Shown: positions 1 to 63,230, counted from the stretch's first letter. The stretch is 63,230 bases of DNA from a virus (IMGVR_UViG_3300016484_000766:1-63230), one strand, 5' to 3'. Made by a program: numbers and translations. The notes: generated from the letters alone by a model not told the origin.

Positions 1-22
1 CCCCCCCCGAAAGTAGACGACC

Positions 23-331
23 ATGAAGCCAGCGCATAAGTACCAGCTTCGCAAGTGGGACGACAAAGATAACATCATCGTCGTGGCTTACGAAGGCGCA
101 CAGCTATGCACTGAAATATGGATACCGAGTTTAGCGCGGCGGGTTCCGTTCAGTCGCCGTCTGGCTACCGTACGCATCAAAGAGCAAGACGGCTGGCACG
201 TGATCCCGGAGTTCGGGGAATATGACGACGTGCACGAGCAAGTGTCGTTCGAGCGCCTGATTCCCGCCGTGCGGTACATGGAGACCGTGATGCGGCTTAG
301 CCAAGGAGCCCCCGATGAAGACGCCGCGTAG
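23..331 (+). CDS. Small protein, C-terminal helix-motif family
   Basis: 102 aa ORF ending ...PAVRYMETVMRL; matches the motif shared by ~20 neighbouring small ORFs. Confidence 0.75.
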   Translation: MKPAHKYQLRKWDDKDNIIVVAYEGAQLCTEIWIPSLARRVPFSRRLATVRIKEQDGWHVIPEFGEYDDVHEQVSFERLIPAVRYMETVMRLSQGAPDEDAA

Positions 332-581
332 CCCGGGCAGCACGTACTGGACCGACGGCTTCGCGCAGCAATCTCACTGCCACGCGTTGTGGAAAGTCGA
401 TGCGTCCGGGCTCATCGCATGTGTGGCCGTTCTTTATCTGCAGGACGGAACGTGGCGGGCCCGGCGCCCAAATCTGCCGGCGTCCTCCCCTCACGACGAC
501 CTCGCCTGGTTCAAGATGACGACCGACCGGCCCGAAGACGCCAAGATGGTCCTAGAAGTTTCCCTCAGACTCGGAACTTGA
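315..581 (+). CDS. Small protein, C-terminal helix-motif family (divergent)
   Basis: RBS AAGGAG upstream; ends ...PEDAKMVLEVSLRLGT. Confidence 0.7.
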   Translation: MKTPRSPGSTYWTDGFAQQSHCHALWKVDASGLIACVAVLYLQDGTWRARRPNLPASSPHDDLAWFKMTTDRPEDAKMVLEVSLRLGT

Positions 582-674
582 TTACGAGTCAGCAGTCATA
601 GCGAGCGGGCGCGTGGCTGCATTTCAACCCACCCCGTGTTTCCTTCCACTCACTTGCTTACTGAAAGGCAAACC

Positions 675-1688
675 ATGAAGTACTCGAACCTCAAGCGCAC
701 CATCGTCGCCCAGTGGACCGCCCCCGCCGGTCACAAGATGGCCTACCTCATCCTGGGCAAGCCCGGTGGCGGCAAGTCGGCGCTCAGCCTCGACATCGTC
801 AAGTCGCTCGGCGGCACCCCCGAGAACACGGTCGTCTTCACGCCCTCGCTGCGCGATCCGGTCGACGTGCTCGGCACCCCGAACAACCAAGGCGAGGTCA
901 CGCGCTGGGTCCCGCCCGCCGAGTTCTACAAGCTGCGCAAGGGTGTCGGCAAGTGCTTCCTCGTCATCGAGGAGCTGACCGACGCCACGATCCCCATGAT
1001 GAACGCCATGTGCCGCATCGTGCTGGATCGCCACGCCGGTGACCTGGAACTCAGCGACGAGCTGTACATCATCGGCACCGGCAACCGCACCGAGGACAAG
1101 TCCGGCGCCAACCGCCTGACGACCAAGCTGGGCAACCGCCTGAACATCCAGCACTTCGACGAGAACCTTGACGACTGGGTGGACTGGGCCATGGCCAACA
1201 ACATCGACCCGGTGCTGATCCAGTTCATCCGCTTCAAGCCGAACCTGCTGAGCGACTTCGACCCCAACCGCGCCTACGGCGTCAACCCCACCCCGCGCCA
1301 GTGGGAGAAGGTGGCGCTGTCGCCGACGACCCTGCCGACCGACTTGTTCATGGAGAACGTCAAGGGCCTCGTCGGCGAGGGCGCGGCGGCCGAGTACGCG
1401 GCGTTCCGCAAGATCTACGCCGGCCTGATCTCCTTCGAGGAGGTGGTCATGAACCCGAAGACGGTTCCGATCCCGAGCGATCTGTCGGCGCAGTACGCCA
1501 TCATCGGCTCGATCAGCCACAACACGACCAAGGCCAACATCGAGCGTGTGGCTGAGTTCGTGGAGCGCCTGCCGAGCGACTTCTCGGTGATGTTCTGGCA
1601 GGACACGACCAAGCGCTCGCCGGACGTGAAGACCAGCAAGGCGTTCATCAAGTGGGCGACCTCCGCCACCAACGTCGTCATCAACTAA
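675..1688 (+). CDS. MoxR-like AAA+ ATPase
   Basis: Walker A GKPGGGKS, Walker B FLVIEEL, sensor TGNR, NRL arginine-finger region, PTPRQW; ATG 675 follows GAAAGG. Confidence 0.9.
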   Translation: MKYSNLKRTIVAQWTAPAGHKMAYLILGKPGGGKSALSLDIVKSLGGTPENTVVFTPSLRDPVDVLGTPNNQGEVTRWVPPAEFYKLRKGVGKCFLVIEELTDATIPMMNAMCRIVLDRHAGDLELSDELYIIGTGNRTEDKSGANRLTTKLGNRLNIQHFDENLDDWVDWAMANNIDPVLIQFIRFKPNLLSDFDPNRAYGVNPTPRQWEKVALSPTTLPTDLFMENVKGLVGEGAAAEYAAFRKIYAGLISFEEVVMNPKTVPIPSDLSAQYAIIGSISHNTTKANIERVAEFVERLPSDFSVMFWQDTTKRSPDVKTSKAFIKWATSATNVVIN

Positions 1689-1695
1689 CCACGGG

Positions 1696-1720
1696 GCCGG
1701 GGCCGAAGCCCCGGCAATTT
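1696..1720 (+). terminator. GC-rich hairpin after the ATPase (weak terminator or stabiliser)
   Basis: GCCGGGGC-CGAA-GCCCCGGC followed by AATTT. Confidence 0.5.
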
Positions 1721-1721
1721 C

Positions 1722-1985
1722 ATGCAATGGTCTGTTTCTAACCTAGGGCGTTGCCCCTCCCACATGCTCATGATCAAAGGAATCACAACAGCCGCAGTTG
1801 TTGACCTGAACCTCGATCCGGGGCGCGAATGCACCGCCCCGCGGTTCTTCGCTGTGGTGAGCGGCGACGTGCTGGAGCTTCCTCCGGACGCTGACGACGT
1901 CGAAGCAGCCAAGCGCTACGTGGAAGTGCTGATTACTCTGGACCGCGGCCATGCGGCCACGCAAGGAGCGAAACATGGACGATGA
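1722..1985 (+). CDS. Small protein, C-terminal helix-motif family
   Basis: Contains DVEAAKRYVEVLITL near the C-terminus. Confidence 0.75.
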   Translation: MQWSVSNLGRCPSHMLMIKGITTAAVVDLNLDPGRECTAPRFFAVVSGDVLELPPDADDVEAAKRYVEVLITLDRGHAATQGAKHGR

Positions 1986-2331
1986 CGACAACGGAGAGCC
2001 GCGCGCCACGTGGCGCACAGTTTTCTTCATCAGCGCCGACTACGACGGCGTTAGCGTCGACTTTGCCGTCTCGTACGACAAGGCCGATGAGCTCCAAGAC
2101 GCGATCAAGGCCGAGCGGGTAGCGGCTAGGCTCAACGGCGGAGGCATCGACGTCAATAGCCTTGAAGCCCGGTTCCCCGAGGCGTTCCGTGCCGCTGAGG
2201 ACGTGTCGCTCATGAGTATCCGAGCCCGTACGAACATGCGCATCAAAGGCCCATTCAACGTCCTGGCCGACCACGCGCTGACCGACGAGGAGATGATTGC
2301 ATGGTTCAAGATGAAGCACCCGAGAGGGTAA
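1975..2331 (+). CDS. Hypothetical protein
   Basis: ATG 1975 with AAGGAG RBS; stop overlaps the next start (TAATG). Confidence 0.75.
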   Translation: MDDDDNGEPRATWRTVFFISADYDGVSVDFAVSYDKADELQDAIKAERVAARLNGGGIDVNSLEARFPEAFRAAEDVSLMSIRARTNMRIKGPFNVLADHALTDEEMIAWFKMKHPRG

Positions 2332-2597
2332 TGCCATATGACCCCGAAGGTCGTATTAACCGCAGGACTACGGGGTGGTACCACGACGGCAAAGAGTACT
2401 ACCGCTACTTCGACAGTGTCTCGTCGCTGTGGCTCGTACTCGTGCAGTTTGAAGGCGGGCGAGCGACGCTAGAGATGTGGGACGACGCCAAAGCGGAATT
2501 CGTCGCGGACGAGATACCCCACTTCGACGACATTCAAGCAACGCTCCGTTACGCGCGTGCCGTGTACGCGCTCTCGGGGTTGAGGCCGACTCAATGA
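2331..2597 (+). CDS. Small protein, C-terminal helix-motif family
   Basis: Coupled start; ends DIQATLRYARAVYALSG. Confidence 0.75.
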   Translation: MPYDPEGRINRRTTGWYHDGKEYYRYFDSVSSLWLVLVQFEGGRATLEMWDDAKAEFVADEIPHFDDIQATLRYARAVYALSGLRPTQ

Positions 2598-2851
2598 CTG
2601 CGCTGACGTGGCAACCGCCGAATGGCAAGGGTTTTTGGGAGCTCAGAGCAAGCGAGGGGCCTTTCCCCAACAAAGCCCTTTTGTACCTACGTACCGACCG
2701 CGGTACCGCAGATATGACGTACCAGCTGTGGAGAGGGCTCAAGCCGGGCGGTATGTCGTGGACCGAGAGGACGCCGGTCCCTGTGGGCATGTCCGTAGAA
2801 GAAGCTCTACGCTACGTCGAAGTACTAGCGCGCATGGAGATGGCCGAATGA
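2594..2851 (+). CDS. Small protein, C-terminal helix-motif family
   Basis: ATGA overlap; ends SVEEALRYVEVLARMEMAE. Confidence 0.8.
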   Translation: MTALTWQPPNGKGFWELRASEGPFPNKALLYLRTDRGTADMTYQLWRGLKPGGMSWTERTPVPVGMSVEEALRYVEVLARMEMAE

Positions 2852-3120
2852 GAGCTGAAGATTTCGAGCGGCAAAGAGCCGACGACGAACGCGCATCAAG
2901 CCTTCACTGGCATAACTACAAACAAAGCAGCGTGGAGAACGCGGTTCCGTATCCGGCAGTGATCCATTGGCAGGATAAGACGTACGCTTTCTGGCCCCTA
3001 CACAACACCGCCTTTATGTTCGGCCCCCTCGTTCCTTTCCCCGAGGAGCTGAAAGACGCCCCTCGTAAGCAGGTCATGGACTACGTCCTGACCGTTTTTC
3101 TGTTGACCACCAAATCCTGA
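2848..3120 (+). CDS. Small protein, C-terminal helix-motif family (divergent)
   Basis: ATGA overlap; ends PRKQVMDYVLTVFLL. Confidence 0.7.
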   Translation: MRAEDFERQRADDERASSLHWHNYKQSSVENAVPYPAVIHWQDKTYAFWPLHNTAFMFGPLVPFPEELKDAPRKQVMDYVLTVFLLTTKS

Positions 3121-3132
3121 GGACTTACTTAC

Positions 3133-4377
3133 ATGTCAACGACTCCGCAGATCGTCAAGATCACCAAGGACGACCAAGGCAACAAGGTCGTCACCCCAGT
3201 GACCCAAGCCGAGGTCGACGAAGCCCGCGCCAAGTGCAAGCGGCTGATCGACAAGGCGCGCGCGTTCATCGTGCTGGATCACCCGTTCTTCGCGTCCATC
3301 ATGCTCAAGCGCCCGTTCACCGAGCGCTTCGACATTCCCACGCTGGCCGTCACCGACTCCGGCAACATCTTCTACAACCCGTTCTTCATCGCGCAGCAGG
3401 AGCCCGACCAGATCGTCTGGGCCATCTGCCACGAAGTGCTGCACTACGCGTCCGGTCACGGCCTGCGCCGCGGCTCGCGCGACCCGAAGAAGTGGAACGT
3501 CGCCGGCGACGCCTGGATCAACGACACGCTGACGTCCATCCCTGTGGGCAAGCCGATCCCCGGCACTGTCAACATGCCCGGCAGCAAGGACCGCACGGTC
3601 GAGGACATCTACGCCACGCTGCCCGAGGACGACGGTGGCAAGGGCAAGAACAAGGGCGGCCAGGGCAACCCCAGCGGCCAGGGCGGCGACCCCATGGCCG
3701 ACGACATGGAGGACGACGGCGCGGGCAAGGACCCCTCTGCCGCAGCGGAGGCCGATGCGCAGCGCAAGCTCGACGTTGCCGAAGCGGCTCAAGTGGCCAA
3801 GGCCAAGGGCAAGCTGCCCGGCCAGCTCGCGGACTTCGTGTCCGACACCATCGAGTCGCGTACGCCGTGGTATGACATCCTGGAGCGCTACATGACCGAG
3901 CGCATCAAGAACGACTTCAGCTGGGCGCGCCCCAACCGTCGCTACATGCCCGACTACTACCTGCCGTCCATCGACGGCGTTGGCGCCATGGGCCCCATCG
4001 TGTGCCAGGTCGACATCAGCGGCTCGATCTCGCAGCAGGAGATCGCGCACTACAACGGCCACATCAAGCGCATCATCGAGCAGTGCCGTCCGACCAAGGT
4101 GCACGTAATCTACACCGACACGCAGGTGCAGAAGCACGAGGAGTTCGACAACCCCGACGACGTCGAGATCCGCTTCTACTCCGGCGGCGGCACCGACATG
4201 CGGGCCGGCTTCGACTACATCGAGCAGCACGGCATCGAGCCCGAGGTCATGGTGACGCTGACGGACGGCTACACGCCGTTCCCCGAGGACACCTCCGTGC
4301 CGTCGGTGTGGTGCATCAGCACCAAGAACATCTCGTCCCCCTGCGGCGAGAACGTGCACTTCTCGCGCAACGACTGA
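3133..4377 (+). CDS. DUF2201-type protein: N-terminal zincin metallopeptidase-like domain plus C-terminal vWA domain
   Basis: HEVLH (HExxH), Gly/Asp-rich linker, MIDAS DISGS, GGGTD and LTDG motifs. Confidence 0.9.
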   Translation: MSTTPQIVKITKDDQGNKVVTPVTQAEVDEARAKCKRLIDKARAFIVLDHPFFASIMLKRPFTERFDIPTLAVTDSGNIFYNPFFIAQQEPDQIVWAICHEVLHYASGHGLRRGSRDPKKWNVAGDAWINDTLTSIPVGKPIPGTVNMPGSKDRTVEDIYATLPEDDGGKGKNKGGQGNPSGQGGDPMADDMEDDGAGKDPSAAAEADAQRKLDVAEAAQVAKAKGKLPGQLADFVSDTIESRTPWYDILERYMTERIKNDFSWARPNRRYMPDYYLPSIDGVGAMGPIVCQVDISGSISQQEIAHYNGHIKRIIEQCRPTKVHVIYTDTQVQKHEEFDNPDDVEIRFYSGGGTDMRAGFDYIEQHGIEPEVMVTLTDGYTPFPEDTSVPSVWCISTKNISSPCGENVHFSRND

Positions 4378-13299: not shown

Positions 13300-14830
13300 C
13301 CCGGACCAGCTTCTCGCGCTGATCCCGACGGCAAGGCCCCTGGTGGTCAAGGGGCAGAAGCTAGTGGCCGTGCCCCACCGCCTCGACGAGACGCGCGTGC
13401 TCCAGAACATGGGCATGTCTCCGCCGTCGCCGATCCGCTACCACTACGAGTGGTCGGGGCAGTACAAGCCGTTCACGGCCCAGATGGACACTGCGGAGTT
13501 CCTGACGCTCCATCCGCGAGCCTACGTACTCAACGAGATGGGCACCGGCAAGACGATGGCCGCGCTGTGGGCGTACGACTACCTGCGCAGCATCGGCAAG
13601 GTGAACAAGGTGCTGGTCTACTGCCCGCTGTCAACAATGGAGCGCACGTGGGCGGACGAGATCTTTCGCCACTTCCCGCACCTGGACTACGTGGTCGTGC
13701 ATGGCGATCGCAAGCGCCGCCAGAAGCTGATCCAGCAGAACGCCCATGTCTACATCATCAACCACGACGGCCTGGACATCATCAGCGAGCAGCTGAAAGA
13801 CCGCAGCGACATCGACCTTGTCATCGTCGACGAGATCGCTCAGGCGGGGCGCAACGCCAGCACAGACCGGTGGCGAACGCTCAACACCGTCGTCAACCTG
13901 CAGCTAGGCGGAGCCCGCTGGTGCTGGGGGGTAACCGGTACACCTACGCCGAACGCACCGACCGACGCCTGGGCTCAGTGCCGCCTGGTTACGCCGTCCA
14001 CGGTCCCGAAGTACTTCGGCCGGTTCAAAGACGCCGTGATGAAGCAGGTGAACCAGTTCCTGTGGGTCCCGCGCCCTAACGCCATGGAGCACGTGCACAG
14101 CGTCATGCAGCCGTCAATTCGGTTCAGCCGCGCCGAGTGCGTGGACTTGCCGCCGTGCGTGTTCCAGACTCGTCAGGTCGAGCTGTCCGCCAAGCAGGCG
14201 AAGGCCTACAAGGAGATGCTCAACCGCCTGAAAGCCGAGGTCGACGGCGGGGAAGTGCTGGCCGTCAACGAAGCGGTGAAGACGGCCAAGCTGGTGCAGA
14301 TCGCCTGCGGCGTGGCGTATGACAACGATGGCGAAGAGATCGTGCTGGACGCTAGCAAGCGCCTTGAGGTAACGCGAGAGATCATCAGCGAGGCAGAAGG
14401 CAAAGTCATCGTGTTCGCACCGTTCGTGTCCGCCGTCAAGTACGTGGCCGACCACCTAAAGCTGTGCGGTATCAGCGCTGAGACGATCTACGGTGAGGTT
14501 CCCAAGCACGAGCGCGACCGCATCTTTGGCGCGTTCCAGAACTTGGACGAGCCTCGCGTCATCGTTGCTCAGCCGGCGGCCATGTCGCACGGGCTCACAC
14601 TCACGGCAGCCGATACGATCATCTGGTACGCACCGATCTTCAGCAACGACATCTACGACCAAGCATGTGCGCGCATCACGCGGCCCGGCCAAAAGCGGGC
14701 TCAGCTGATCGTGAACATCGAGGGAAGCCCTGTCGAGCGGCTCATGTACAACCGGCTCCAGCACAAGCAAAAGATGCAAGGCATCCTTCTGACGATGGTC
14801 GAAGATGCTAGAGTATCAACTGTTGACTGA
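13253..14830 (+). CDS. SNF2-family (SF2) helicase
   Basis: EMGTGKT, VIVDE, TGTP, HGLTL, QACARITRPGQ. Confidence 0.92.
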   Translation: MLVLPQKKALVVKSRDPDQLLALIPTARPLVVKGQKLVAVPHRLDETRVLQNMGMSPPSPIRYHYEWSGQYKPFTAQMDTAEFLTLHPRAYVLNEMGTGKTMAALWAYDYLRSIGKVNKVLVYCPLSTMERTWADEIFRHFPHLDYVVVHGDRKRRQKLIQQNAHVYIINHDGLDIISEQLKDRSDIDLVIVDEIAQAGRNASTDRWRTLNTVVNLQLGGARWCWGVTGTPTPNAPTDAWAQCRLVTPSTVPKYFGRFKDAVMKQVNQFLWVPRPNAMEHVHSVMQPSIRFSRAECVDLPPCVFQTRQVELSAKQAKAYKEMLNRLKAEVDGGEVLAVNEAVKTAKLVQIACGVAYDNDGEEIVLDASKRLEVTREIISEAEGKVIVFAPFVSAVKYVADHLKLCGISAETIYGEVPKHERDRIFGAFQNLDEPRVIVAQPAAMSHGLTLTAADTIIWYAPIFSNDIYDQACARITRPGQKRAQLIVNIEGSPVERLMYNRLQHKQKMQGILLTMVEDARVSTVD

Positions 14831-56213: not shown

Positions 56214-56258
56214 CCACCACCTTCACCCAACTCACCCAACTCACCCAAGGAGAGCCAC

Positions 56259-56530: not shown

Positions 56531-57184
56531 ATGGACACGAACAACTACCGAGCCTTCAACAAGTTCATCACGACGCCCGAAGCGCGGCGGCAGTACTTGA
56601 ACGAGCACTGCGCCCTCATCACCGCGCGGGACGCACGACGCCTGCTCGGCGCCGTCAACGGCAACAAGCTCAAGGCGACGAACATCGAGCACGGGAAGTT
56701 CTACTGCGTCAACAAGCCAATGCGCGTATTCAAGAAGGTCCGCGCCTTCCGGCGGGTGATCAGCCCCTCGTATCCCAAAGGCGTCGTGGACGCGTGCCGC
56801 GTTCCTGCCATCGCCAACCTCGTGGTGCCGACTTCCGCTGTGGTCTACGTGCCGAACTGCGTCATCGGCCTGCCGTACGACGTGAAGCTCCCCCAGCGGG
56901 TGCTGCACGACGCCGCGCTCAAGCACGTCGATTCGGCCGTGCTCCGCAAGTGCCGTGCGTCGCGCGCGTCCGTGCACAGCATCGTGACCGTCAAGGATGA
57001 AGAGTTCGAAGCGGTGGCCTATGGCTACAGCGACTTCCGATACCTCACCGGCACGACGGTGCACCCCGAGTCGAGGGACGGCAAGGGCGTTTTCGAGGAC
57101 AAGAGCCGGTTCTGGGAGCGCCAGCACTGCACGCAAGGCATCCACTTCTTCTTCGACCTGGCCGACGCGATCGCCTACAACTGA
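56531..57184 (+). CDS. DUF5758-like domain protein
   Basis: RKCRASRASV...Y..G.TV.P...CTQGIHFF. Confidence 0.65.
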   Translation: MDTNNYRAFNKFITTPEARRQYLNEHCALITARDARRLLGAVNGNKLKATNIEHGKFYCVNKPMRVFKKVRAFRRVISPSYPKGVVDACRVPAIANLVVPTSAVVYVPNCVIGLPYDVKLPQRVLHDAALKHVDSAVLRKCRASRASVHSIVTVKDEEFEAVAYGYSDFRYLTGTTVHPESRDGKGVFEDKSRFWERQHCTQGIHFFFDLADAIAYN

Positions 57185-57193
57185 GGAGCACGC

Positions 57194-57604
57194 ATGAACA
57201 AGTTCCTGTACCACAAGGACGGCACCGGCTTGCCCTACGAGCCTGGCGTCGAGTGGGTCTTCGTCTTCGGCTCGAACACGGCAGGCCGTCACGGCGGCGG
57301 CGCGGCGCGCGCAGCAGTCATCAGCTACGGCGCGCAGTACGGCAACGGCTTCGGTCGTCAGGGCCTGAGCTACGCGCTGCCCACCAAGGACGACAACATC
57401 GACACGCTGCCGCTGCGCGAGGTGAAGTACCACGTCGACAAGTTCATCGAGTACGCGAAGGCGAACCCCGAGTGCATGTTCTTCGTCACCCGCGTGGGCT
57501 GCGTGCTGGCCGGGTACAACGACGCCGACATCGCGCCGATGTTCAAAGACGCGCCGTCGAACTGCTCGTTCGCTGAAGGGTGGAAGAAGTACCTGGAGAG
57601 CTGA
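57194..57604 (+). CDS. A1S_2505-family phage non-structural protein (macro-like fold)
   Basis: VFVFGSN.AGRHGGGAA...SYALPTK...TRVGCVLAG. Confidence 0.75.
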   Translation: MNKFLYHKDGTGLPYEPGVEWVFVFGSNTAGRHGGGAARAAVISYGAQYGNGFGRQGLSYALPTKDDNIDTLPLREVKYHVDKFIEYAKANPECMFFVTRVGCVLAGYNDADIAPMFKDAPSNCSFAEGWKKYLES

Positions 57605-57605
57605 C

Positions 57606-58007
57606 ATGGACATCAGCAAGTGCCGGTGGATCACCGCGAGCCCTGTCAGCCGGGACGACGATCCCGGCAGAGAGAAGTTCCTGTACCACTGGTTCAGCAT
57701 GCACTCGCTGATCCCGCAGTCAAAGCTGCATTGGGGCGAGCCCGGCCAGTGGACAGGCTTCTACGCCGACGAGGGCCCAGACAGCATCGACGGCGCGGAA
57801 ATGAAGGATGCACCGCCCATCGGGTTCTTGATGATGATGATCGTCTTCCACAAGCCCGGCGCGATCTACATGTGGTGCTTCAGACGCGGCAAGTTCGTGC
57901 TGGTTTGCGACCGTAGCGCCCACGGTATCACGAACCCCGACGAGCTGAAGCGCTACGCCGAGACTCTCCTGCGCATGCAGAGCATCAAGGAGCTACGCGA
58001 TGGCTAA
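57606..58007 (+). CDS. Small protein, C-terminal helix-motif family
   Basis: GITNPDELKRYAETLLRMQ. Confidence 0.8.
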   Translation: MDISKCRWITASPVSRDDDPGREKFLYHWFSMHSLIPQSKLHWGEPGQWTGFYADEGPDSIDGAEMKDAPPIGFLMMMIVFHKPGAIYMWCFRRGKFVLVCDRSAHGITNPDELKRYAETLLRMQSIKELRDG

Positions 58008-58341
58008 CCTGTACTGGGTGCACAGATCCCAACTCAAAGGCGACTACTCGCACGAATATTTGCTGTTCTGCGGTGACCCGCGCAAGGGCATCGGCACTTG
58101 CGAGAAGATCGTCGACGCTGGCAACAAGGAGTGCGTGTGCGTCGGTACGTACGCTACCGAGGGCTACGACGCCGGCAACGCGCAGCTAGTCAAAGCGGAC
58201 CCAGCCGGGACGAAGTACGCACGCTACTACAACAATAAACCGCCCGGCGGCGTGCGCCCAAATGCGCACGAGTGGCCTGCCGAGGTACACACAACCGAGC
58301 AGCGCCTGCGGTATCTACAAGTCATGTGGAGGTTGCTGTGA
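58000..58341 (+). CDS. Small protein, C-terminal helix-motif family
   Basis: WPAEVHTTEQRLRYLQVMWRLL. Confidence 0.8.
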   Translation: MANLYWVHRSQLKGDYSHEYLLFCGDPRKGIGTCEKIVDAGNKECVCVGTYATEGYDAGNAQLVKADPAGTKYARYYNNKPPGGVRPNAHEWPAEVHTTEQRLRYLQVMWRLL

Positions 58342-58625
58342 TCGTCTGGCAATACCGCGCGGATTACCGCGGCTGGCTCGCGTTCGACACCAACGTGCGC
58401 GACTACGGCAGCTACGAGGTGGAGATCAACGGCGTCATGTGCAGCTGCGTCGCGCACATACGGCCCTGCATGGGCGGCGTGGAGGGCTACTACAACTCCG
58501 GAAAAACCGGGCGCCCAACGGAATCCCACAAAGACAAGCACATCCCCCACGACAAGTGGCCCGAGGGCGTGGACACCATCGAGCAGAAGAAGGCGTACCT
58601 CGCCATGCTTTACGAGCTGCAATGA
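58338..58625 (+). CDS. Small protein, C-terminal helix-motif family
   Basis: GTG start, GGAGG RBS; WPEGVDTIEQKKAYLAMLYEL. Confidence 0.8.
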   Translation: MIVWQYRADYRGWLAFDTNVRDYGSYEVEINGVMCSCVAHIRPCMGGVEGYYNSGKTGRPTESHKDKHIPHDKWPEGVDTIEQKKAYLAMLYELQ

Positions 58626-58987
58626 CAACGCCCACCGCATACCTCAGCGAGCTGCGCAACGCGCTCGCTGAGATGGACCCGCCTCCCTTCACGTCCAGCG
58701 ACCAGCAGACCATCTGGATCGACGACGACCCCATGCACCCAGACTGGTACTACGGCCTGACCAAGGTCCGCCCGAGGGACAGCGAAAGGACGTGGGAAGA
58801 GTACGACAGTCACTGCATCCTGGCTGGGCGCACGTGCTACGTATGCATGCGCAAAAACCCGAAACCCGGTGAAGCCGTAGCCAGCTACTCCTGGCCGGAA
58901 AAACTCCTGCTCGCGTGGCCCAAGGGTGTCGACACCCTCGACCAGCGCAAGGCGTACATCGAAACTCTTGACCGACTGGACCCCTGA
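58622..58987 (+). CDS. Small protein, C-terminal helix-motif family
   Basis: WPKGVDTLDQRKAYIETLDRL. Confidence 0.8.
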   Translation: MTTPTAYLSELRNALAEMDPPPFTSSDQQTIWIDDDPMHPDWYYGLTKVRPRDSERTWEEYDSHCILAGRTCYVCMRKNPKPGEAVASYSWPEKLLLAWPKGVDTLDQRKAYIETLDRLDP

Positions 58988-59307
58988 TGGGCACGACAAA
59001 CTGCCGGTGGGAGCCGCACTGCAGATGGCACGAAACTCTCCACGCAGCGTTTGACAAGTACCAGTTCCTCCCGCCGCTGGAGGCCGCAGACATACAAGAA
59101 GGCGACTACCAGGCGTACAACGTCACGGAGGGGTATCTTGTGGGCTGGACGCTGTGCTTCGTCTTCTGGAAAGACATGTCCGTGTGGGTGTGGGACGACG
59201 CTGGCGGCAACTTCGTACGCCAGCCCACCTGCGGAATCACCGATCGTGAGGAACTACTGCGCTACGCAGAGGTACTTACGCGCCTTCAACCCAACATCAC
59301 CTCGTAA
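58987..59307 (+). CDS. Small protein, C-terminal helix-motif family
   Basis: GITDREELLRYAEVLTRLQ. Confidence 0.8.
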   Translation: MGTTNCRWEPHCRWHETLHAAFDKYQFLPPLEAADIQEGDYQAYNVTEGYLVGWTLCFVFWKDMSVWVWDDAGGNFVRQPTCGITDREELLRYAEVLTRLQPNITS

Positions 59308-59316
59308 GGAGCACCA

Positions 59317-59565
59317 ATGAAACTCACCATCAACCTCGCAGGCATCCTGCGTCTCGGCTTCCTTGCGGCCTGCGTGTACGCCACGTACGTGTTCCTGAGT
59401 ACAGGCCAGTACTTCGCAGCGACGTGGCCGCTCATATGCCTTCTTCTCGACATGGCCAACAACTCGCTAGCCCGCAAGCTTCACGAAGCCAAGGAACTGC
59501 TCGACACGGCGCACGTGTTGTTGACAGGCAAGCACATCGACGGCACGCCGGAGGGCAAGTCGTGA
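59317..59565 (+). CDS. Small membrane protein
   Basis: TAAGGAG RBS; hydrophobic N-terminal half. Confidence 0.7.
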   Translation: MKLTINLAGILRLGFLAACVYATYVFLSTGQYFAATWPLICLLLDMANNSLARKLHEAKELLDTAHVLLTGKHIDGTPEGKS

Positions 59566-59759
59566 ACATCTACGAGATCATCAGCATCCTCGCAGCAGAT
59601 GCCCTCGGCGTCATGCTGTCGTACTACAGTGTTGCTGTCAAGGGGCTCATCGTCTGCCTCGTACTCTACGTGGTGTCGTCAGTCACCGGCACGCTGAGCT
59701 ACACGCACGACAAGAAGTGCGCGCCGGAGCGCCCAGCAGTCACCAAGCCGATGGTGTGA
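59562..59759 (+). CDS. Small membrane protein
   Basis: GTGA overlap; two hydrophobic segments. Confidence 0.65.
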   Translation: MNIYEIISILAADALGVMLSYYSVAVKGLIVCLVLYVVSSVTGTLSYTHDKKCAPERPAVTKPMV

Positions 59760-59760
59760 C

Positions 59761-60003
59761 GTGAGCAGCTTCGTCTGGCGCAAGGAGCGTAACGACTTCC
59801 GCTGCCTCACGCAGTACATCGCTTTCGCCGAGAGTGGGGTCGACCAAGCGTGCATAGACGTACACGACGACGGGCTCGTGGCTGCCAGATATCGGGATCG
59901 TCACCCCGAAGGACGCGGCGCCATCAACGCTACCAATAACCTACCAGACTTGCCGCTGGACGAACTAACTCTGTACATCGAGACACTTGCGGGGCTGACA
60001 TGA
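59761..60003 (+). CDS. Small protein, C-terminal helix-motif family
   Basis: PLDELTLYIETLAGLT. Confidence 0.75.
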   Translation: MSSFVWRKERNDFRCLTQYIAFAESGVDQACIDVHDDGLVAARYRDRHPEGRGAINATNNLPDLPLDELTLYIETLAGLT

Positions 60004-60389
60004 CAACAACCTGGATTTGCCGGCACACCGACCACGTCGACGATGAAAACAACATGCGCTACGACGAAAACGTCCCGCGACCTGCTACGGTGCACGAAGC
60101 GTACCGTGACTTCCAGGACGCCGAGAAGCTCACCTGCCCAATGTCTTCGTATGTCCGCGGGGACGAAGACCCTGAGAGCCTACGCTCGGCTGCCGAGCGC
60201 GCGTGGTGGATCAAGTGGATCAAGTACGACGACTCCGACGAGCCCGAAGTGCCGCAGGCATGGATGAAGGACGGAGACTGGAACGCATGGGGGCCTGTCA
60301 CTACCGAGCCGATCCCATTCCCGTACGGTGACGCGGACGGGCTCAAGTACGTCGAGACGCTTGCCGTGCTGGCAGGAGCCAAGCCATGA
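60000..60389 (+). CDS. Small protein, C-terminal helix-motif family
   Basis: DADGLKYVETLAVLAGAKP. Confidence 0.8.
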   Translation: MTTTWICRHTDHVDDENNMRYDENVPRPATVHEAYRDFQDAEKLTCPMSSYVRGDEDPESLRSAAERAWWIKWIKYDDSDEPEVPQAWMKDGDWNAWGPVTTEPIPFPYGDADGLKYVETLAVLAGAKP

Positions 60390-60664
60390 GCTACGAGTGG
60401 AAGAGCGAAGGTGCGTCCGTTTGGCAAGGAGCCGTCCCTGAAAAAGAGTACGCCGAAGACCGGCAAGGGCGGGACGACGAAACCTACTTTAAGCACCGCT
60501 GGGTGGTCATGTGGCTTCTTCACAGCAACGGCTCGTCCCGTATGTCGTACTGGACCGGCGACGCCTGGATCGAGGAGCGCATCAGCGACGACATTAAGTT
60601 CGGCTCCGAAGAAGGGTTTCGATACGTCGAGACGCTTGCGCGGTTGCACGGAGCAAAAGCATGA
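60386..60664 (+). CDS. Small protein, C-terminal helix-motif family
   Basis: SEEGFRYVETLARLHGAKA. Confidence 0.8.
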   Translation: MSYEWKSEGASVWQGAVPEKEYAEDRQGRDDETYFKHRWVVMWLLHSNGSSRMSYWTGDAWIEERISDDIKFGSEEGFRYVETLARLHGAKA

Positions 60665-60744
60665 CCGTCGGTACGAAGTGGACGAACGAGCACGGAGATA
60701 CGTACGTGTTTCCTGATGCACACGGCAAAAAGCGGCAACTATGA
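60661..60744 (+). CDS. 27-aa mini-ORF (possible truncated array member)
   Basis: ATGA overlaps at both ends; MTVGTKWTNEHGDTYVFPDAHGKKRQL. Confidence 0.45.
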   Translation: MTVGTKWTNEHGDTYVFPDAHGKKRQL

Positions 60745-61043
60745 GCTGGCGCCCTCCCGACAATTTCTGGTGGGAAGAAGAATGGCGCTACGCGTGCGAA
60801 GACAACTACGCGTGCGAAGACAACTACTCGCGCCGCAAGAAAGACGGCTTCTACGACTTCCGTTGGTGGGCCACGGTGTACGCGCCGATCGAGGAAGACT
60901 CGCACTATAGGGTAGAGGTGTGGTCCGGTCCGACAGGCGAAGCCGAGCTCGAATTGCAAGACGTCGCGTTCGACAACGAGGACGAAGCAAAGCGGTTCGC
61001 CGAGACGCTGGCCGCGCTGAACGGGAGCAGCGCGTCATGTTGA
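60741..61043 (+). CDS. Small protein, C-terminal helix-motif family
   Basis: NEDEAKRFAETLAAL; internal 18-bp duplication. Confidence 0.8.
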   Translation: MSWRPPDNFWWEEEWRYACEDNYACEDNYSRRKKDGFYDFRWWATVYAPIEEDSHYRVEVWSGPTGEAELELQDVAFDNEDEAKRFAETLAALNGSSASC

Positions 61044-61288
61044 AAGACGAGATCGTGAAAGGTGAGGTGCGCGATGGCGATACGCCCATCTACCGTCTTA
61101 CAGACAAGAACCCGTACATAAGCCCAACGTCGCTGGTAGCGTGGTACAGGCAAACCAAAGGCTTGTACCTATGGCGCGGTGGCGTCGGGTGGGAGCGAGT
61201 CAACGAAGTGCCCGACCTGCTGCCGCTGAGCGACGAGTGGATGATGTGGGTGAAAGCCATCCTCGTCCTCGAAAACATCCACGGGTGA
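61037..61288 (+). CDS. Small protein, C-terminal helix-motif family
   Basis: SDEWMMWVKAILVLEN; paralog of the next gene. Confidence 0.75.
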   Translation: MLKDEIVKGEVRDGDTPIYRLTDKNPYISPTSLVAWYRQTKGLYLWRGGVGWERVNEVPDLLPLSDEWMMWVKAILVLENIHG

Positions 61289-61292
61289 CGCC

Positions 61293-61538
61293 GTGGCTAT
61301 CGAAGTGAGCGTCTACCCGAACCAGGATATTTCGTTCTACCGAACGTCGAGTGCGGCCCAGTTCAGGAACTCAGTGTCGTTAGTGGCGGCGTACACGCCG
61401 AGGTCCGGGCTTCATGTTTGGGACAAAGCAAAAGTAAATTGGGTCGAGCACCCACTTCCCGAGGACGTTGACGCGACGTCGCCCGAGTTCATCCGCTACG
61501 TTACCGCGATCTTAGAGCTGGAAAACGTGCAACCCTAA
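61293..61538 (+). CDS. Small protein, C-terminal helix-motif family
   Basis: SPEFIRYVTAILELEN. Confidence 0.75.
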   Translation: MAIEVSVYPNQDISFYRTSSAAQFRNSVSLVAAYTPRSGLHVWDKAKVNWVEHPLPEDVDATSPEFIRYVTAILELENVQP

Positions 61539-61550
61539 GGAGTCACTTAC

Positions 61551-62450
61551 ATGAACGCACCTGAGCAACTCAAGCTGAACCTCGACACCGGCAGCATCAA
61601 CAAGCTGAACACGAAAGCAATGCTTGTGCGCCTGTCGATCAGCAAGCCGGCCACGTCCAAGCGTGACGCCAACGCCGAGCAGTTCACGCAGCAGTCACTC
61701 GGCGACGCTGGGCTGCGCGTCAACGCCACGCTCTTCAAGGACAAGCACTCGCCCGTGCGGCGCCTCCTCAACGAAGCCACGGCGGTGTACCACTACCACA
61801 AGCAGAACACGCTGCCGTACATCGACCGCGGCCCGCGGCTCCTCCCGGTGGCGAACTACGAGAAATACCGCGACGACATGCGCCGGCTCGTGGCCGACGT
61901 CGACAACTCGCTGCGCGCTCTGATGCCCAACTACTCGCAGCACGTGGCGGCTGACATCGTGGCGCGCGGCGCCCGCGCAGCAGCAACGGACTACCCGGAT
62001 GCAGCTACGTTCGAGGCGGCGTTCAAGCTCAGCTTCACTTTCAGCCCGCTGCCGGACTCCGACCACTTCCTGTTCGATATCACGCAGGAAGACAAGGACG
62101 CGTTGCAGGCGCAGCTCGACGAAGTGGCCCAGGCCGCACGCGAAGACATGCGAGCACGTGTGTCCGAGCCGCTTCGCCATCTGCTGGACAAGCTCAAGGT
62201 GCCGGCCGGCACGCCGGGCTCGATCTTCCGTGACAGCGCCGTCGAGAACATCCTGGAGTCGGTGACGCTGGTGCGCTCTCTGGCCATGGGTGACCCCGAG
62301 ATCCTCGACATGTGCAACCAGGTCGCCGCCGCCATGAGCGGCTATGCCAGCAACCCGCAGGTCCTCCGCGAGTCTCCGATCGTGCGAGAGCAGACGGTGA
62401 CCAAGCTCAACGATGTCGCCCAGAAGATGGGCTTTTTGTTCGGAGCGTGA
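61551..62450 (+). CDS. DUF3150-like helical protein
   Basis: AMLVRLSIS, TLPY...G.RLLP, DYP......F...F.F.PLP, IFRDSAVEN; TAAGGAG RBS; this family is usually found with phage AAA+/vWA genes. Confidence 0.65.
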   Translation: MNAPEQLKLNLDTGSINKLNTKAMLVRLSISKPATSKRDANAEQFTQQSLGDAGLRVNATLFKDKHSPVRRLLNEATAVYHYHKQNTLPYIDRGPRLLPVANYEKYRDDMRRLVADVDNSLRALMPNYSQHVAADIVARGARAAATDYPDAATFEAAFKLSFTFSPLPDSDHFLFDITQEDKDALQAQLDEVAQAAREDMRARVSEPLRHLLDKLKVPAGTPGSIFRDSAVENILESVTLVRSLAMGDPEILDMCNQVAAAMSGYASNPQVLRESPIVREQTVTKLNDVAQKMGFLFGA

Positions 62451-62451
62451 C

Positions 62452-62733
62452 ATGAGCTGGAACGAAGAGCACGTGTGCTACCAGTCGCACGTTATCGTCG
62501 ATAACGGTGTGCGCCTCAAAACCTACTACACAAACGAAGGCGCAGAAGACGACGACGTTCTGGTCTTCGTGCGCCCTGACGGCTCCGTGTACACAGCGTA
62601 TCTGCACGGCTTCGACAGCGCCCCGCCTCGTGGGTACGTTGAGCACTCCACGCTCGACGAAGCCGTGGCTTACATGAAGACGTGCAACCGCATAGGGGGC
62701 ACCGGTGCCGATGATTACCCGGAAGACATTTGA
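62452..62733 (+). CDS. Small protein, C-terminal helix-motif family
   Basis: STLDEAVAYMKTCNRI. Confidence 0.75.
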   Translation: MSWNEEHVCYQSHVIVDNGVRLKTYYTNEGAEDDDVLVFVRPDGSVYTAYLHGFDSAPPRGYVEHSTLDEAVAYMKTCNRIGGTGADDYPEDI

Positions 62734-62974
62734 CGGCAACACGTGGGTACGCGAGACCCCGTACACGTGGCGGCACCAAGGCCACAACGTCTTAGTAGTA
62801 GTGGCTCGCTGCAGAAACAAAGGCGTCGCCAGCAAAGACCAGCCGTGGCAGTTGCACCTAATCGAGTACGCGCTGTATACAGGTAACCGCAGATCGCGCA
62901 CGGTGCCGCACACGTTCCCAACCGCCGAGGCGGCTATGCAGTACTACGAAGTGCTGCGCAGACTGGAGGAGTGA
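62705..62974 (+). CDS. Small protein, C-terminal helix-motif family
   Basis: PTAEAAMQYYEVLRRLEE (start may be ATG 62711). Confidence 0.75.
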   Translation: MPMITRKTFDGNTWVRETPYTWRHQGHNVLVVVARCRNKGVASKDQPWQLHLIEYALYTGNRRSRTVPHTFPTAEAAMQYYEVLRRLEE

Positions 62975-63230
62975 TGGCAAGGCTTAAGTACAGGCCGGAG
63001 AAGTCCTACGGGGCAGAAGAAAAGCACAACGGCGCGCTGCGCTACAAAGGCATGCGCGTCCTCTCCTGCGTAGGCATCCGCGGCGCGTGGAGCGAATTCA
63101 CCGTCAGCTTTCTCGCCGCGCGCGCCGCCGAGAACACCCGCTGGTGGATCATGAGTACCGACCCTAGGCTCGACGACGCCTACGAGACTGTGAGCTTTGA
63201 CACGCTCAAGGAAGCCATACGGTATCTGAC
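62974..63230 (+). CDS. Small protein, C-terminal helix-motif family, runs off the window end
   Basis: GGAGGAG RBS, TGATG coupling; MARLKYRPEK...DTLKEAIRYL. Confidence 0.75.
   Translation, partial: MARLKYRPEKSYGAEEKHNGALRYKGMRVLSCVGIRGAWSEFTVSFLAARAAENTRWWIMSTDPRLDDAYETVSFDTLKEAIRYL

Follow-up and report, generated by a model that had tools for sequence, protein, structure and literature searches.

An expanded array of diverged small proteins sharing a C-terminal motif in an uncultured freshwater phage

About one-tenth of the genome of an uncultured freshwater phage is taken up by some 20 diverged copies of one small protein, a family expansion unusually large for a small virus. The window analyzed here is the whole 63,230-bp virus record, and the copies lie on its plus strand at 57606-63230 and 1-3120, as 20 small genes of 80 to 133 aa that total about 5.9 kb. 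Most likely, we infer, they form a diversified repertoire of binding proteins made early, serving host takeover or anti-defence. We give this explanation as a whole (an expanded family, a small-domain scaffold, and early binders with targets of their own) a probability of about one half.

About twenty old tandem duplicates of a single small gene, by now strongly diverged, are packed head to tail. As modeled, each product is one small soluble domain, in which a C-terminal amphipathic helix lies on the sheet of an antiparallel beta-meander. Within the tail, the Tyr, both Leu, and the hydrophobic positions would form the core of this scaffold together with an N-terminal and a central Trp, and because the tail belongs to that core, it would stay constant while strands and loops drift. 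The paralogs would be made early in infection as small binding proteins, each with its own target, be it a host factor or a defence component, and the family would thus serve host takeover or counter-defence. The initial annotation had described a constant tail on a hypervariable body under arms-race selection. Its observation is confirmed; its interpretation is partly supported.

Organization of the array

The record is classed as linear without end repeats, and the array spans both of its ends; direct terminal repeats are present in two relatives, and the Logan contig ends at 63223. We named the members A01 to A20, with 14 in the right-hand stretch and 6 in the left. Together they make a single plus-strand run of about 8.7 kb, broken by six other genes. 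All 20 C-terminal strings listed by the initial annotation end plus-strand open reading frames where it had placed them. Scores in bits below are leave-one-out motif scores.

The run begins with A01 (133 aa, 57606..58007; 26.1 bits), in which nine residues follow the motif. It overlaps A02 (113 aa, 58000..58341; 10.9 bits) by 8 nt. For A03 (95 aa, 58338..58625; 10.9 bits), the GTG start overlapping the A02 stop was our choice; the exact A03 protein is present in the representative library as P0004. A04 (121 aa, 58622..58987; 23.3 bits) has an ATGA overlap with A03, and A05 (106 aa, 58987..59307; 23.8 bits) is a paralog of A01, with an alignment spanning 49 aa. Two small hydrophobic frames without the motif come next, M1 (59317-59565) and M2 (59562-59759), which by eye look like putative membrane proteins. 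They are followed by A06 (80 aa, GTG start, 59761..60003; 15.6 bits), A07 (129 aa, 60000..60389; 12.3 bits), and A08 (92 aa, 60386..60664; 26.2 bits), the tails of the last two being 60% identical over 20 aa. A09 (100 aa, 60741..61043; 19.1 bits) contains a perfect 18-nt tandem duplication at 60788-60823 (repeat D16), and A10 (83 aa, 61037..61288; 10.0 bits) and A11 (81 aa, GTG start, 61293..61538; 7.5 bits) complete this block.

Protein B (299 aa, 61551..62450), a nonmember with relatives in 21 viral loci and no Pfam or PHROG match, separates A11 from A12 (93 aa, 62452..62733; 10.1 bits). A13 (87 aa, 62711..62974; 13.6 bits) gives the best family-profile match within this genome, at 55.4 bits. 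A14 (62971..63230; −1.2 bits) is still open at the record end, which removes its 3′ end and cuts its motif after the seventh residue; continuing the frame across the record ends adds a short stretch that departs from the motif. A15 (102 aa, 23..331; 14.5 bits) and A16 (88 aa, 315..581; 13.9 bits) precede a MoxR-like AAA+ ATPase gene (636..1688; phrog_1297 ATPase, 1.8e-65, and a weak Pfam AAA_5 match), which lies inside the array. Then come A17 (87 aa, 1722..1985; 20.6 bits), the nonmember protein C (126 aa, 1951..2331; no Pfam or PHROG match and only a weak internal motif match of 7.4 bits), A18 (98 aa, 2301..2597; 6.7 bits), A19 (85 aa, 2594..2851; 27.1 bits), and A20 (90 aa, 2848..3120), the weakest member at 2.5 bits, with an own-genome profile match of E 2e-5. 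The right border is the gene for a VWA-like protein with a putative metallopeptidase domain (3133..4377; Pfam DUF2201_N and DUF2201, 9.2e-45 and 3.2e-19).

Consistent with the translational coupling proposed for most of these genes, 23 of the 26 junctions in the array region overlap or are spaced by 12 nt or less, a count that depends on the start codons we picked. No promoter-like sites were found on the plus strand, and terminator-like sites were not in excess. The array shares its operon with replication genes, a position that suggests early expression. The proteins are rich in aromatic residues, as had been noticed: Trp, Tyr, and Phe make up 11.9% of member residues versus 7.6% in long frames elsewhere in the genome; for Trp alone the figures are 3.8% and 1.6%. 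Fifteen of the 20 members carry a net negative charge, as do many small phage inhibitors of host proteins.

The C-terminal motif

The shared tail reads as two acidic residues, two variable ones, a basic residue, Tyr, a hydrophobic residue, Glu, Thr or Val, Leu, a variable residue, Arg, and Leu. We scored it with a 14-residue position-specific matrix, leaving each protein out in turn, against a background of 4000 shuffled proteins. Sixteen of the 20 members exceeded the 99th percentile of the shuffles (9.0 bits), the four below it being A11, A18, A20, and A14. The best-scoring position was the C-terminal one in 19 of the 20, with 1 to 14 residues following. When the full matrix was run over the 707 stop-to-stop frames of at least 50 aa in all six frames of the genome, the best 20 matches were the 19 anchored array genes and one internal site, at 14189, within an SNF2 helicase. 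The scoring is somewhat circular, since the regular expression that chose the anchors was written after the sequences had been inspected. At the other end of the proteins, Trp occurs within the first 12 residues in 14 of the 20 members, compared to 7.1 expected from shuffles (P = 0.0012), which bears out a further feature of the initial annotation.

One reading takes the tail to be mainly a nucleotide-level signal, for example a recombination site or a ribosome-binding site for the following gene. At 11 of the 20 member starts, the final codons of the preceding gene do contain GGAG, GAGG, or AGGA. However, these Shine-Dalgarno-like sites fall after the motif and not within it, and members in related phages end in the motif even where the next gene is a nonmember. 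Variability across the 14 motif codons peaks at the third position (1.55 bits, versus 1.33 and 1.14), so selection acts on the protein. The conserved Leu and Glu are encoded by several synonymous codons, and tail DNA is only 69-76% identical. We disfavor the nucleotide signal as very improbable.

At the protein level, the motif has the periodicity of a helix, with hydrophobic residues at −3, 0, +1, +4, and +7, acidic residues at −5 and −4, basic residues at −1 and +6, and Glu at +2. This pattern fits an amphipathic packing face with an N-cap and intrahelical i/i+4 salt bridges.

Tandem origin and divergence

On the sequence evidence, the members are old tandem paralogs. They make up one diversified family, as the initial annotation had supposed, and one that was expanded in this lineage. 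The best blastp pairs are mostly neighbors and reach into the body: A10-A11 over 68 aa, A08-A09 over 95 aa, and A14-A15 over 44 aa, with A03-A04 and A07-A08 also among them. With tails removed, 11 of 190 pairs still exceed z = 3 and 4 exceed z = 5; these body-only homologies include A10-A11 (z 6.7), A14-A15 (z 6.1), and A11-A18 (z 5.7). Adjacent genes are more alike than others in the body-only comparison (P = 0.022). The description of the bodies as mostly unalignable therefore stands for the remaining 179 tail-less pairs, at z of 3 or less, but not for neighbors, several of which align over 44-95 residues when tails are kept. Between distant subgroups, hhalign aligned only the last 24-33 residues; the tails do align, but at probabilities of just 4-17%. 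Neither these subgroup comparisons nor the 179 tail-less pairs support homology along the whole length of the members.

Protein identity between members is 13-38%, and the longest direct repeat between them is 58 nt at 76% identity, as seen for A03 and A04; in the repeat comparison the tails stand at 69-72%. That 19 complete genes keep open frames, coupling, and motif at such identities would require long purifying selection.

The family appears to be undescribed, with no known relatives in Pfam, PHROGs, NCBIfam, PADLOC, or PDB. In Pfam, the best E value for the 20 members was 0.018, with seven families hit by one member each, far below cutoffs, and ten members from relatives did no better than 0.067. 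None of the 20 members matched PHROGs v4. NCBIfam yielded no family and 2 stray matches among 34 and PADLOC-DB, a library of defence systems and not of anti-defence proteins, no family and 1 stray match among 34, with no likeness to a known defence-related or anti-defence model; no family was found among PDB sequences.

Among related phages, copy number lies anywhere between 0 and about 20. Seventeen genes in the window match the family profile, versus 4, 1, 1, and seven times 0 in ten related records. The best window member matches the 14 members from relatives at no more than 27 bits, while identity to the counterparts in relatives is 46-57% for the MoxR and VWA genes alongside, which supports the view that the family diverges far faster than its neighbors. 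"Hypervariable" does not describe a related clade in which two members are conserved orthologs, 57-93% identical across many contigs; these would fit a fixed housekeeping role in the phage better than an arms race.

The variable copy number, the recent duplication within A09, and a GC3 of about 0.6-0.8 in array frames, below the 0.83-0.93 of core genes, could also suggest that the copies are largely dispensable passengers. In that case, a duplication-prone segment would be kept by drift or a selfish process, with the motif serving only for folding. We consider this unlikely, as all 19 complete genes retain open frames, tight coupling, and the motif, and some 5.9 kb of ballast would be improbable in a capsid-limited 63-kb genome.

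Predicted fold, partners, and parallels

Returning to the preferred reading, a family of early binding proteins on one scaffold, we modeled A08 and A19 with AlphaFold2. The A19 model (pLDDT 73, pTM 0.65) has strands at 4-7, 14-19, 28-35, 38-44, and 59-61 and a helix at 68-84, its most confident parts being the N-terminal hairpin and the helix; A08 (pLDDT 66) has the same order of elements. These models, of middling confidence, suggest a beta-meander with the conserved C-terminal helix. The packing of helix on sheet is read from the order of secondary structure, the pTM, and the sequence pattern. The tail would then belong to a single small domain as its C-terminal helix, contrary to the earlier picture of a separate constant appendage.

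Fold searches with the two models returned no match above background. The top rows of the two lists go no higher than Z 5.4-5.9; for models without a match, the tool gives 7-8 as its typical best Z. Among the top 26 VIA rows for A08, 10 are Type III secretion class I chaperones (Z 4.4-5.2), but only 3 of 50 rows are for A19. Other weak leads point to small DNA-binding domains, a three-stranded sheet plus helix of the integrase arm-type or AP2-like kind, in which case the members would be regulators or a nucleoid-binding set. The HPI integrase arm-type domain (Z 4.7, 59 residues aligned, rmsd 3.3; Foldseek rank 2, E 0.82) and a Plasmodium AP2 repeat (Z 4.0-4.3) share with the modeled members a small antiparallel sheet and, after it, a helix at the C-terminus. 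The A19 ESM Atlas model reaches a query-normalized TM of 0.45-0.54 to integrase rows, one of which carries an arm-type DNA-binding family where it aligns, and the strand-helix junction of the members presumably resembles that of AP2 domains. However, all of these structural scores lie within the background range of the tool, and the members are mostly acidic. Run over the whole genome in six frames with E values up to 10, the Pfam AP2 profile (PF00847) matched nothing, nor did it match any of the 20 members or of 10 taken from relatives. Such DNA-binding domains seem quite unlikely to us. The A08 and A19 models also carry extra N-terminal strands compared to the arm-type/AP2 fold.

The genomic setting raises another possibility. 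The MoxR-like ATPase and the VWA/metallopeptidase protein are kept together in about 20 related viral contigs, and synteny marks protein B as their conserved partner. This trio, elsewhere contiguous, is split by ten members in the window genome. In relatives, too, members adjoin it, either directly after VWA (L006-L011) or between MoxR and B (L015), and in G001 members flank MoxR on both sides. The conserved C-terminal strand and helix might thus be an independent docking handle that brings different N-terminal bodies to one partner, which could be the module of MoxR ATPase, protein B, and VWA/metallopeptidase that surrounds the array, or the paralogs themselves as hetero-oligomers. Alignment of distant subgroups over the last residues only would agree with this, as would the conserved acidic residues of the motif, given that the VWA domain in a MoxR system binds its clients at acidic residues. 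Still, helix packing and stability alone would explain the conserved positions, and the N-terminal Trp is conserved too, so that the tail is not the only conserved part. The adjacency may just reflect a common early region, and in 7 of the 10 related records the trio or the polymerase is present, yet no profile match. We regard docking as possible but doubtful. The array resembles MoxR AAA+/VWA partner systems in being interleaved with such genes. A literature search on phages with MoxR and DUF2201 gave no papers, and in no described MoxR-VWA system were the small proteins found.

The set of early binders that we favor has parallels elsewhere. Archaeal rudiviruses carry multicopy families of small early genes at their genome ends, among them the AcrID1 homologues of SIRV2. 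These are clustered, diverged paralogs of low mutual similarity that are expressed early, with at least one anti-CRISPR among them (PMC11065993). The array is like these AcrID1 families in that several diverged paralogs cluster in a single viral genome. Unlike the array genes, which overlap in one coupled operon, the rudivirus genes are monocistronic behind a shared strong promoter. SIRV2 is also an archaeal virus and not a tailed phage, and the likeness is one of arrangement.

T-even phages are reported to amplify anti-defence genes segmentally, tifA in T4, with a SegB-driven amplification in T6, so that tandem duplication of small early genes becomes a route to counter-defence (10.1101/2022.04.14.488369; PMC13096335). 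As there, small genes have been duplicated in tandem within a capsid-limited genome; in contrast to the recent and identical T-even copies, the array proteins are 13-38% identical and the best-kept DNA is 69-76% identical. Recent segmental amplification (a genomic accordion) was considered and rejected: the tandem arrangement is there, but near-identical copies are not. If an accordion did give rise to the array, its fixation and divergence lie far in the past.

Poxviruses and African swine fever virus have multigene families near their genome ends, in genomes several times larger. The array is like these families in being made of diverged paralogs whose copy number varies among relatives, a likeness that implies no relation in sequence or fold.

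The array and its C-terminal motif

All 20 of the C-termini picked out by the initial annotation are real ends of plus-strand ORFs. A01 to A14 lie at 57606-63230 and A15 to A20 at 1-3120; they make up a single run of some 8.7 kb when the record is closed into a circle. The motif statistics were obtained by PSSM and HMMER. In a leave-one-out PSSM of 14 residues, 16 of the 20 members scored above 9.0 bits, the 99th percentile of 4,000 shuffles, with A11, A14, A18, and A20 falling below it; the test is somewhat generous, because the expression used to anchor the motif was composed after the sequences had been viewed. The best PSSM position was the C-terminal one in 19 of 20 members, with 1 to 14 residues beyond the motif. 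When all six frames were scanned (707 ORFs of at least 50 amino acids), the top 20 matches were the 19 anchored members and an internal site at 14189, which sits within the SNF2 helicase and which we reject as a chance match. An HMM built from the final 50 residues recovered the members at E values of 6e-15 to 6e-5, against a best value of 0.55 in a reversed database. Other traits that had been attributed to these proteins held up as well. Fourteen of the 20 have a Trp among their first 12 residues (7.1 expected; P = 0.0012), aromatic residues make up 11.9% of the array compared with 7.6% elsewhere (3.8% and 1.6% for Trp), and 23 of 26 junctions overlap or are at most 12 nt apart, given start codons that were our own choice.

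The motif is a feature of the protein. It is hydrophobic at positions -3, 0, +1, +4, and +7 (Tyr at 0 and Leu at +7, each in 16 of 19 members), acidic at -5 and -4, and basic at -1 and +6, with Glu at +2, a sequence pattern that predicts an N-capped amphipathic helix stabilized by internal salt bridges. Across its 14 codons the third positions are the most variable (1.55 bits versus 1.33 and 1.14), the conserved Leu being encoded by CTG, TTG, CTC, or CTT and the conserved Glu by GAG or GAA; DNA identity among the tails is 69 to 76%. Shine-Dalgarno-like words belonging to the next gene fall in the last codons, downstream of the motif. That the conservation reflects a signal at the nucleotide level is, given such codon choice, scarcely credible.

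Diverged bodies and their predicted fold

The initial annotation described a constant tail on hypervariable, mostly unalignable bodies. This stands for 179 of 190 pairs compared without their tails, which have no similarity, but not for the remaining 11, which reach z > 3, four of them z > 5. Neighboring genes are more similar than other pairs even with the tail removed (P = 0.022 by gene-order permutation), and the best blastp pairs with tails kept are mostly neighbors, several extending well into the body (A10-A11, 68 amino acids; A08-A09, 95; A01-A05, 49; A14-A15, 44; A11-A18, 47; A08-A19, 58). Comparison of three subgroups by hhalign gave probabilities of 6%, 4%, and 17%, with the alignment confined to the last 24 to 33 columns. 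At the level of sequence, the 179 dissimilar pairs count against whole-length homology of the family. MAFFT alignments of 30 and of 34 members retain a Trp column near the N-terminus in at least 90% of rows, which is weak evidence, because the program tends to align Trp.

The members constitute one undescribed family, expanded about twentyfold in this lineage via ancient tandem duplication. The frames of the array have been kept open and tightly coupled, and the C-terminal helix and Trp residues have been conserved; for genes kept in this way, we consider it decidedly unlikely that the duplicates are dispensable, however little most of the bodies resemble one another.

Two members carry duplications of their own. 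A09 contains a perfect 18-nt tandem duplication (60788-60823, six residues repeated; repeat families D8 and D16), which is a recent small duplication within an old paralog. A01 (57606-58007) is the longest member and has two matches to the family profile, one of 57606-57827 to positions 1 to 56 and one of 57732-57980 to positions 26 to 73; part of its body may have been duplicated internally.

AlphaFold2 models of two members are of middling confidence. The A08 model (30 aligned members; pLDDT 66, pTM 0.48) opens with two strands and a short helix, followed by three strands and a helix at residues 74 to 87; that of A19 (34 members; pLDDT 73, pTM 0.65) has strands at 4-7, 14-19, 28-35, 38-44, and 59-61 and a helix at 68-84, and its confidence is highest in the N-terminal 20 residues and in the helix. 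Foldseek searches of the PDB gave best E values of 0.27 (A08) and 0.51 (A19), with no match above background, and in BFVD the best E was 0.037, all matches being uncharacterized proteins. VIA-align against 48,161 chains yielded best Z scores of 5.4 and 5.9, inside the tool's stated background; actin capping protein, FrpD, the OspB C-terminal domain, and type III chaperones occupied the top rows. Recurring within this noise were the HPI integrase arm-type domain (Z 4.7), the AP2 repeat (Z 4.0 to 4.3), and type III chaperones (Z 4.4 to 5.2). In the ESM Atlas the best feature score was 0.84 and no family was named; the neighbors of A19 were small uncharacterized viral proteins (TM 0.63) and integrase rows (TM 0.45 to 0.54 by query), one of which carries an arm-type DNA-binding family across the aligned part. 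These rows would fit DNA binders of the arm-type or AP2-like kind, a reading that we hold to be very unlikely; an AP2 profile run against the window genome found nothing at E values up to 10.

Family searches were similarly sparse. Pfam, PHROGs, NCBIfam, and PADLOC gave no matches or stray subthreshold ones only, profile A2 of the family matched no PDB sequence at E values up to 10, and a word-based protein search with A08 returned only A08. Against 1.84 billion representatives, profile A2 matched 17 proteins at E of 0.001 or less: 12 are the window's own, 4 come from relatives, and 1 is P0014. The last is a library protein of 684 amino acids with a signal-like N-terminus and at least six repeats matching the tail part of the profile (E = 1.7e-4); it is unrelated looking, and its repeats look like convergence on a strand-helix motif. 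Profile A3, searched against a set of 5.8 billion, gave 95 proteins among 575 candidates, of which 23 were retrieved. Seventeen of these form a group of about 100 amino acids (with P0023, 65 to 84% identity within 18 aligned) and five a group of about 89 (57 to 93% identity within 6 aligned). Both groups are orthologs of genes in the related phage record G001 and lie on contigs of up to 56 to 63 kb. The initial annotation had proposed an arms race; judged from sequence conservation, these G001-clade orthologs count against a simple story of that kind. Literature searches found no paper on the family, whose members, being unnamed, offer no search term, nothing relevant among the papers listed on tandem-duplicated paralogous small early bacteriophage genes, and no paper joining phage, MoxR, and DUF2201.

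Relatives, the MoxR-B-VWA genes, and possible function

Related viral contigs were reached by two routes, two through the MoxR gene and 21 through protein B. The order MoxR-B-VWA occurs without a long gap in 15 of these loci, at 38 to 57% identity to the window proteins. The trio, a MoxR-like ATPase, the unannotated 299-amino-acid protein B, and a DUF2201 VWA/metallopeptidase protein, is conserved in about 20 related viral contigs and is usually contiguous. PHROGs tags the VWA family "HNH endonuclease," a mismatch with its Pfam domains. In the window, B comes first (61551-62450), followed by MoxR (636-1688) and VWA (3133-4377), and array genes, ten in number, split the trio; the order is B, A12-A16, MoxR, A17, the nonmember protein C, A18-A20, and VWA.

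Members in relatives end alike, with an aromatic residue, x-Ser/Thr-x, acidic residues, Ala-Lys-Ala-Tyr/Trp, a hydrophobic pattern, and Arg plus Leu, Ile, or Met. In loci L006 to L011 a member immediately follows VWA, and in L019 one lies about 1.4 kb past it; L015 has two, the first ahead of MoxR and the second between it and B, and in G001 members flank MoxR on both sides. When 338,781 bases from related loci were scanned with the PSSM, 12 matches fell on the protein B strand, two of them duplicates due to the overlap of L004 with L003, against one on the opposite strand. The family profile gave 18 matches in 17 genes of the window, a figure to be read as a count and not as a test, because 19 of the 30 profile rows are the window's own. 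Among relatives it matched G001 four times and G002 and G005 once each, with no match in G003, G004, G006 to G009, or phage Rollin; three further small ORFs of G001 have a related ending by eye. Window members compared with 14 members from relatives gave no match above 27 bits. A weak hmmsearch match to the VWA protein of L014 (E = 0.071) was rejected as a member. In G001, a homing-endonuclease-like ORF of 212 amino acids, judged by eye, separates MoxR from three family members (L003, 2473-3111). One might read the tail, found so often beside these genes, as a common handle by which members dock onto the MoxR-B-VWA module or paralogs co-assemble; we regard this as unlikely, and in seven of ten related records the profile matches nothing.

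We favor, at roughly even odds, a group of diversified binding proteins made early in infection, which would serve host takeover or counter-defense. The conserved residues would form the core of a single small scaffold, with specificity carried by the variable strands and loops. High-GC3 ORFs form a plus-strand block from about 53.5 kb across the record ends to about 19.6 kb and a minus-strand block from 20.4 to 52 kb. The former includes genes for a family-A DNA polymerase, the SNF2 helicase, the MoxR-like ATPase, and the VWA/metallopeptidase protein, and since the array lies in this block, which runs into replication genes, its expression is probably early. Early phage proteins that are small and mostly acidic and lack enzymatic motifs most often act by binding host proteins. 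It is on the scaffold, the early position, and this general pattern that our estimate rests.

Phage genomes are limited by their capsids, and many paralogs are rarely kept. That about 9% of a 63-kb genome is given to twenty diverged copies of one small protein suggests that variety in a single scaffold has been strongly selected over a long time. One can envision, as a tentative and rather doubtful extension, a tailed phage with a true multigene family, in which twenty long-diverged copies of a new sheet-plus-helix scaffold are each tuned to a different host defense or factor, possibly as clients or adaptors of the MoxR-B-VWA machine in whose midst the array lies; this would be a phage counterpart of the multigene families of large eukaryotic and archaeal viruses. 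Since it is absent from Pfam, PHROGs, and NCBIfam, the family adds an entry to viral "dark matter," and it ties that entry to a widespread but unexplained phage MoxR-VWA module.

In archaeal rudiviruses, several diverged AcrID1 homologues are found among the terminal early genes (PMC11065993); the array here is instead a coupled operon of putative function. Two further reports describe tandem amplification of anti-defense genes under selection in T4 and T6 (10.1101/2022.04.14.488369; PMC13096335), whereas the copies described here differ in age and were duplicated long ago. Were the members inhibitors, the array would provide, ready to use, a set of related binders aimed at different targets, as well as a view of a fixed "accordion" long after amplification.

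Record ends and neighboring genes

The 63,230-bp IMG/VR record (GC content of about 62%) is classed as linear without end repeats, with a CheckV completeness of 100%. Pseudomonas phage Rollin is the closest cultured phage, with a polymerase identity of just 32.6%, and a megablast search with 57000-63230 matched none of 50,697 phage records. The DNA of the window is present in one DNA run, X1, a freshwater metagenome and possible source; no RNA run is among the sequencing runs listed as containing it. A14 is interrupted in the middle of its motif by the record end and is left incomplete, because no assembled X1 contig spans that end (the contig carrying the array stops at 63223). The 5' end (1-22) opens with a run of eight C, and the 3' end (63224-63230) falls within the A14 motif. 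Protein searches listed the same proteins on a contig of 63,250 bp, from another assembly that is 20 bp longer; the record ends are therefore probably assembly breaks rather than physical ends.

The Logan assembly of X1 forks at 56219-56252 of the window, where three 34-nt unitigs join. Word depth is 18.4 for the left contig versus 9.66 for the 7,001-nt array contig (56223-63223). Two variants of the early region may coexist in the sample, a weak suggestion that has one depth figure per contig as its basis.

The array is immediately preceded by genes for a phrog_2072 protein of unknown function (57194-57604; 2.1e-45) and a DUF5758/phrog_9562 protein (56552-57184). In the middle of the array, at 59317-59759, are two overlapping small hydrophobic ORFs of 82 and 65 amino acids that lack the motif and may encode membrane proteins.
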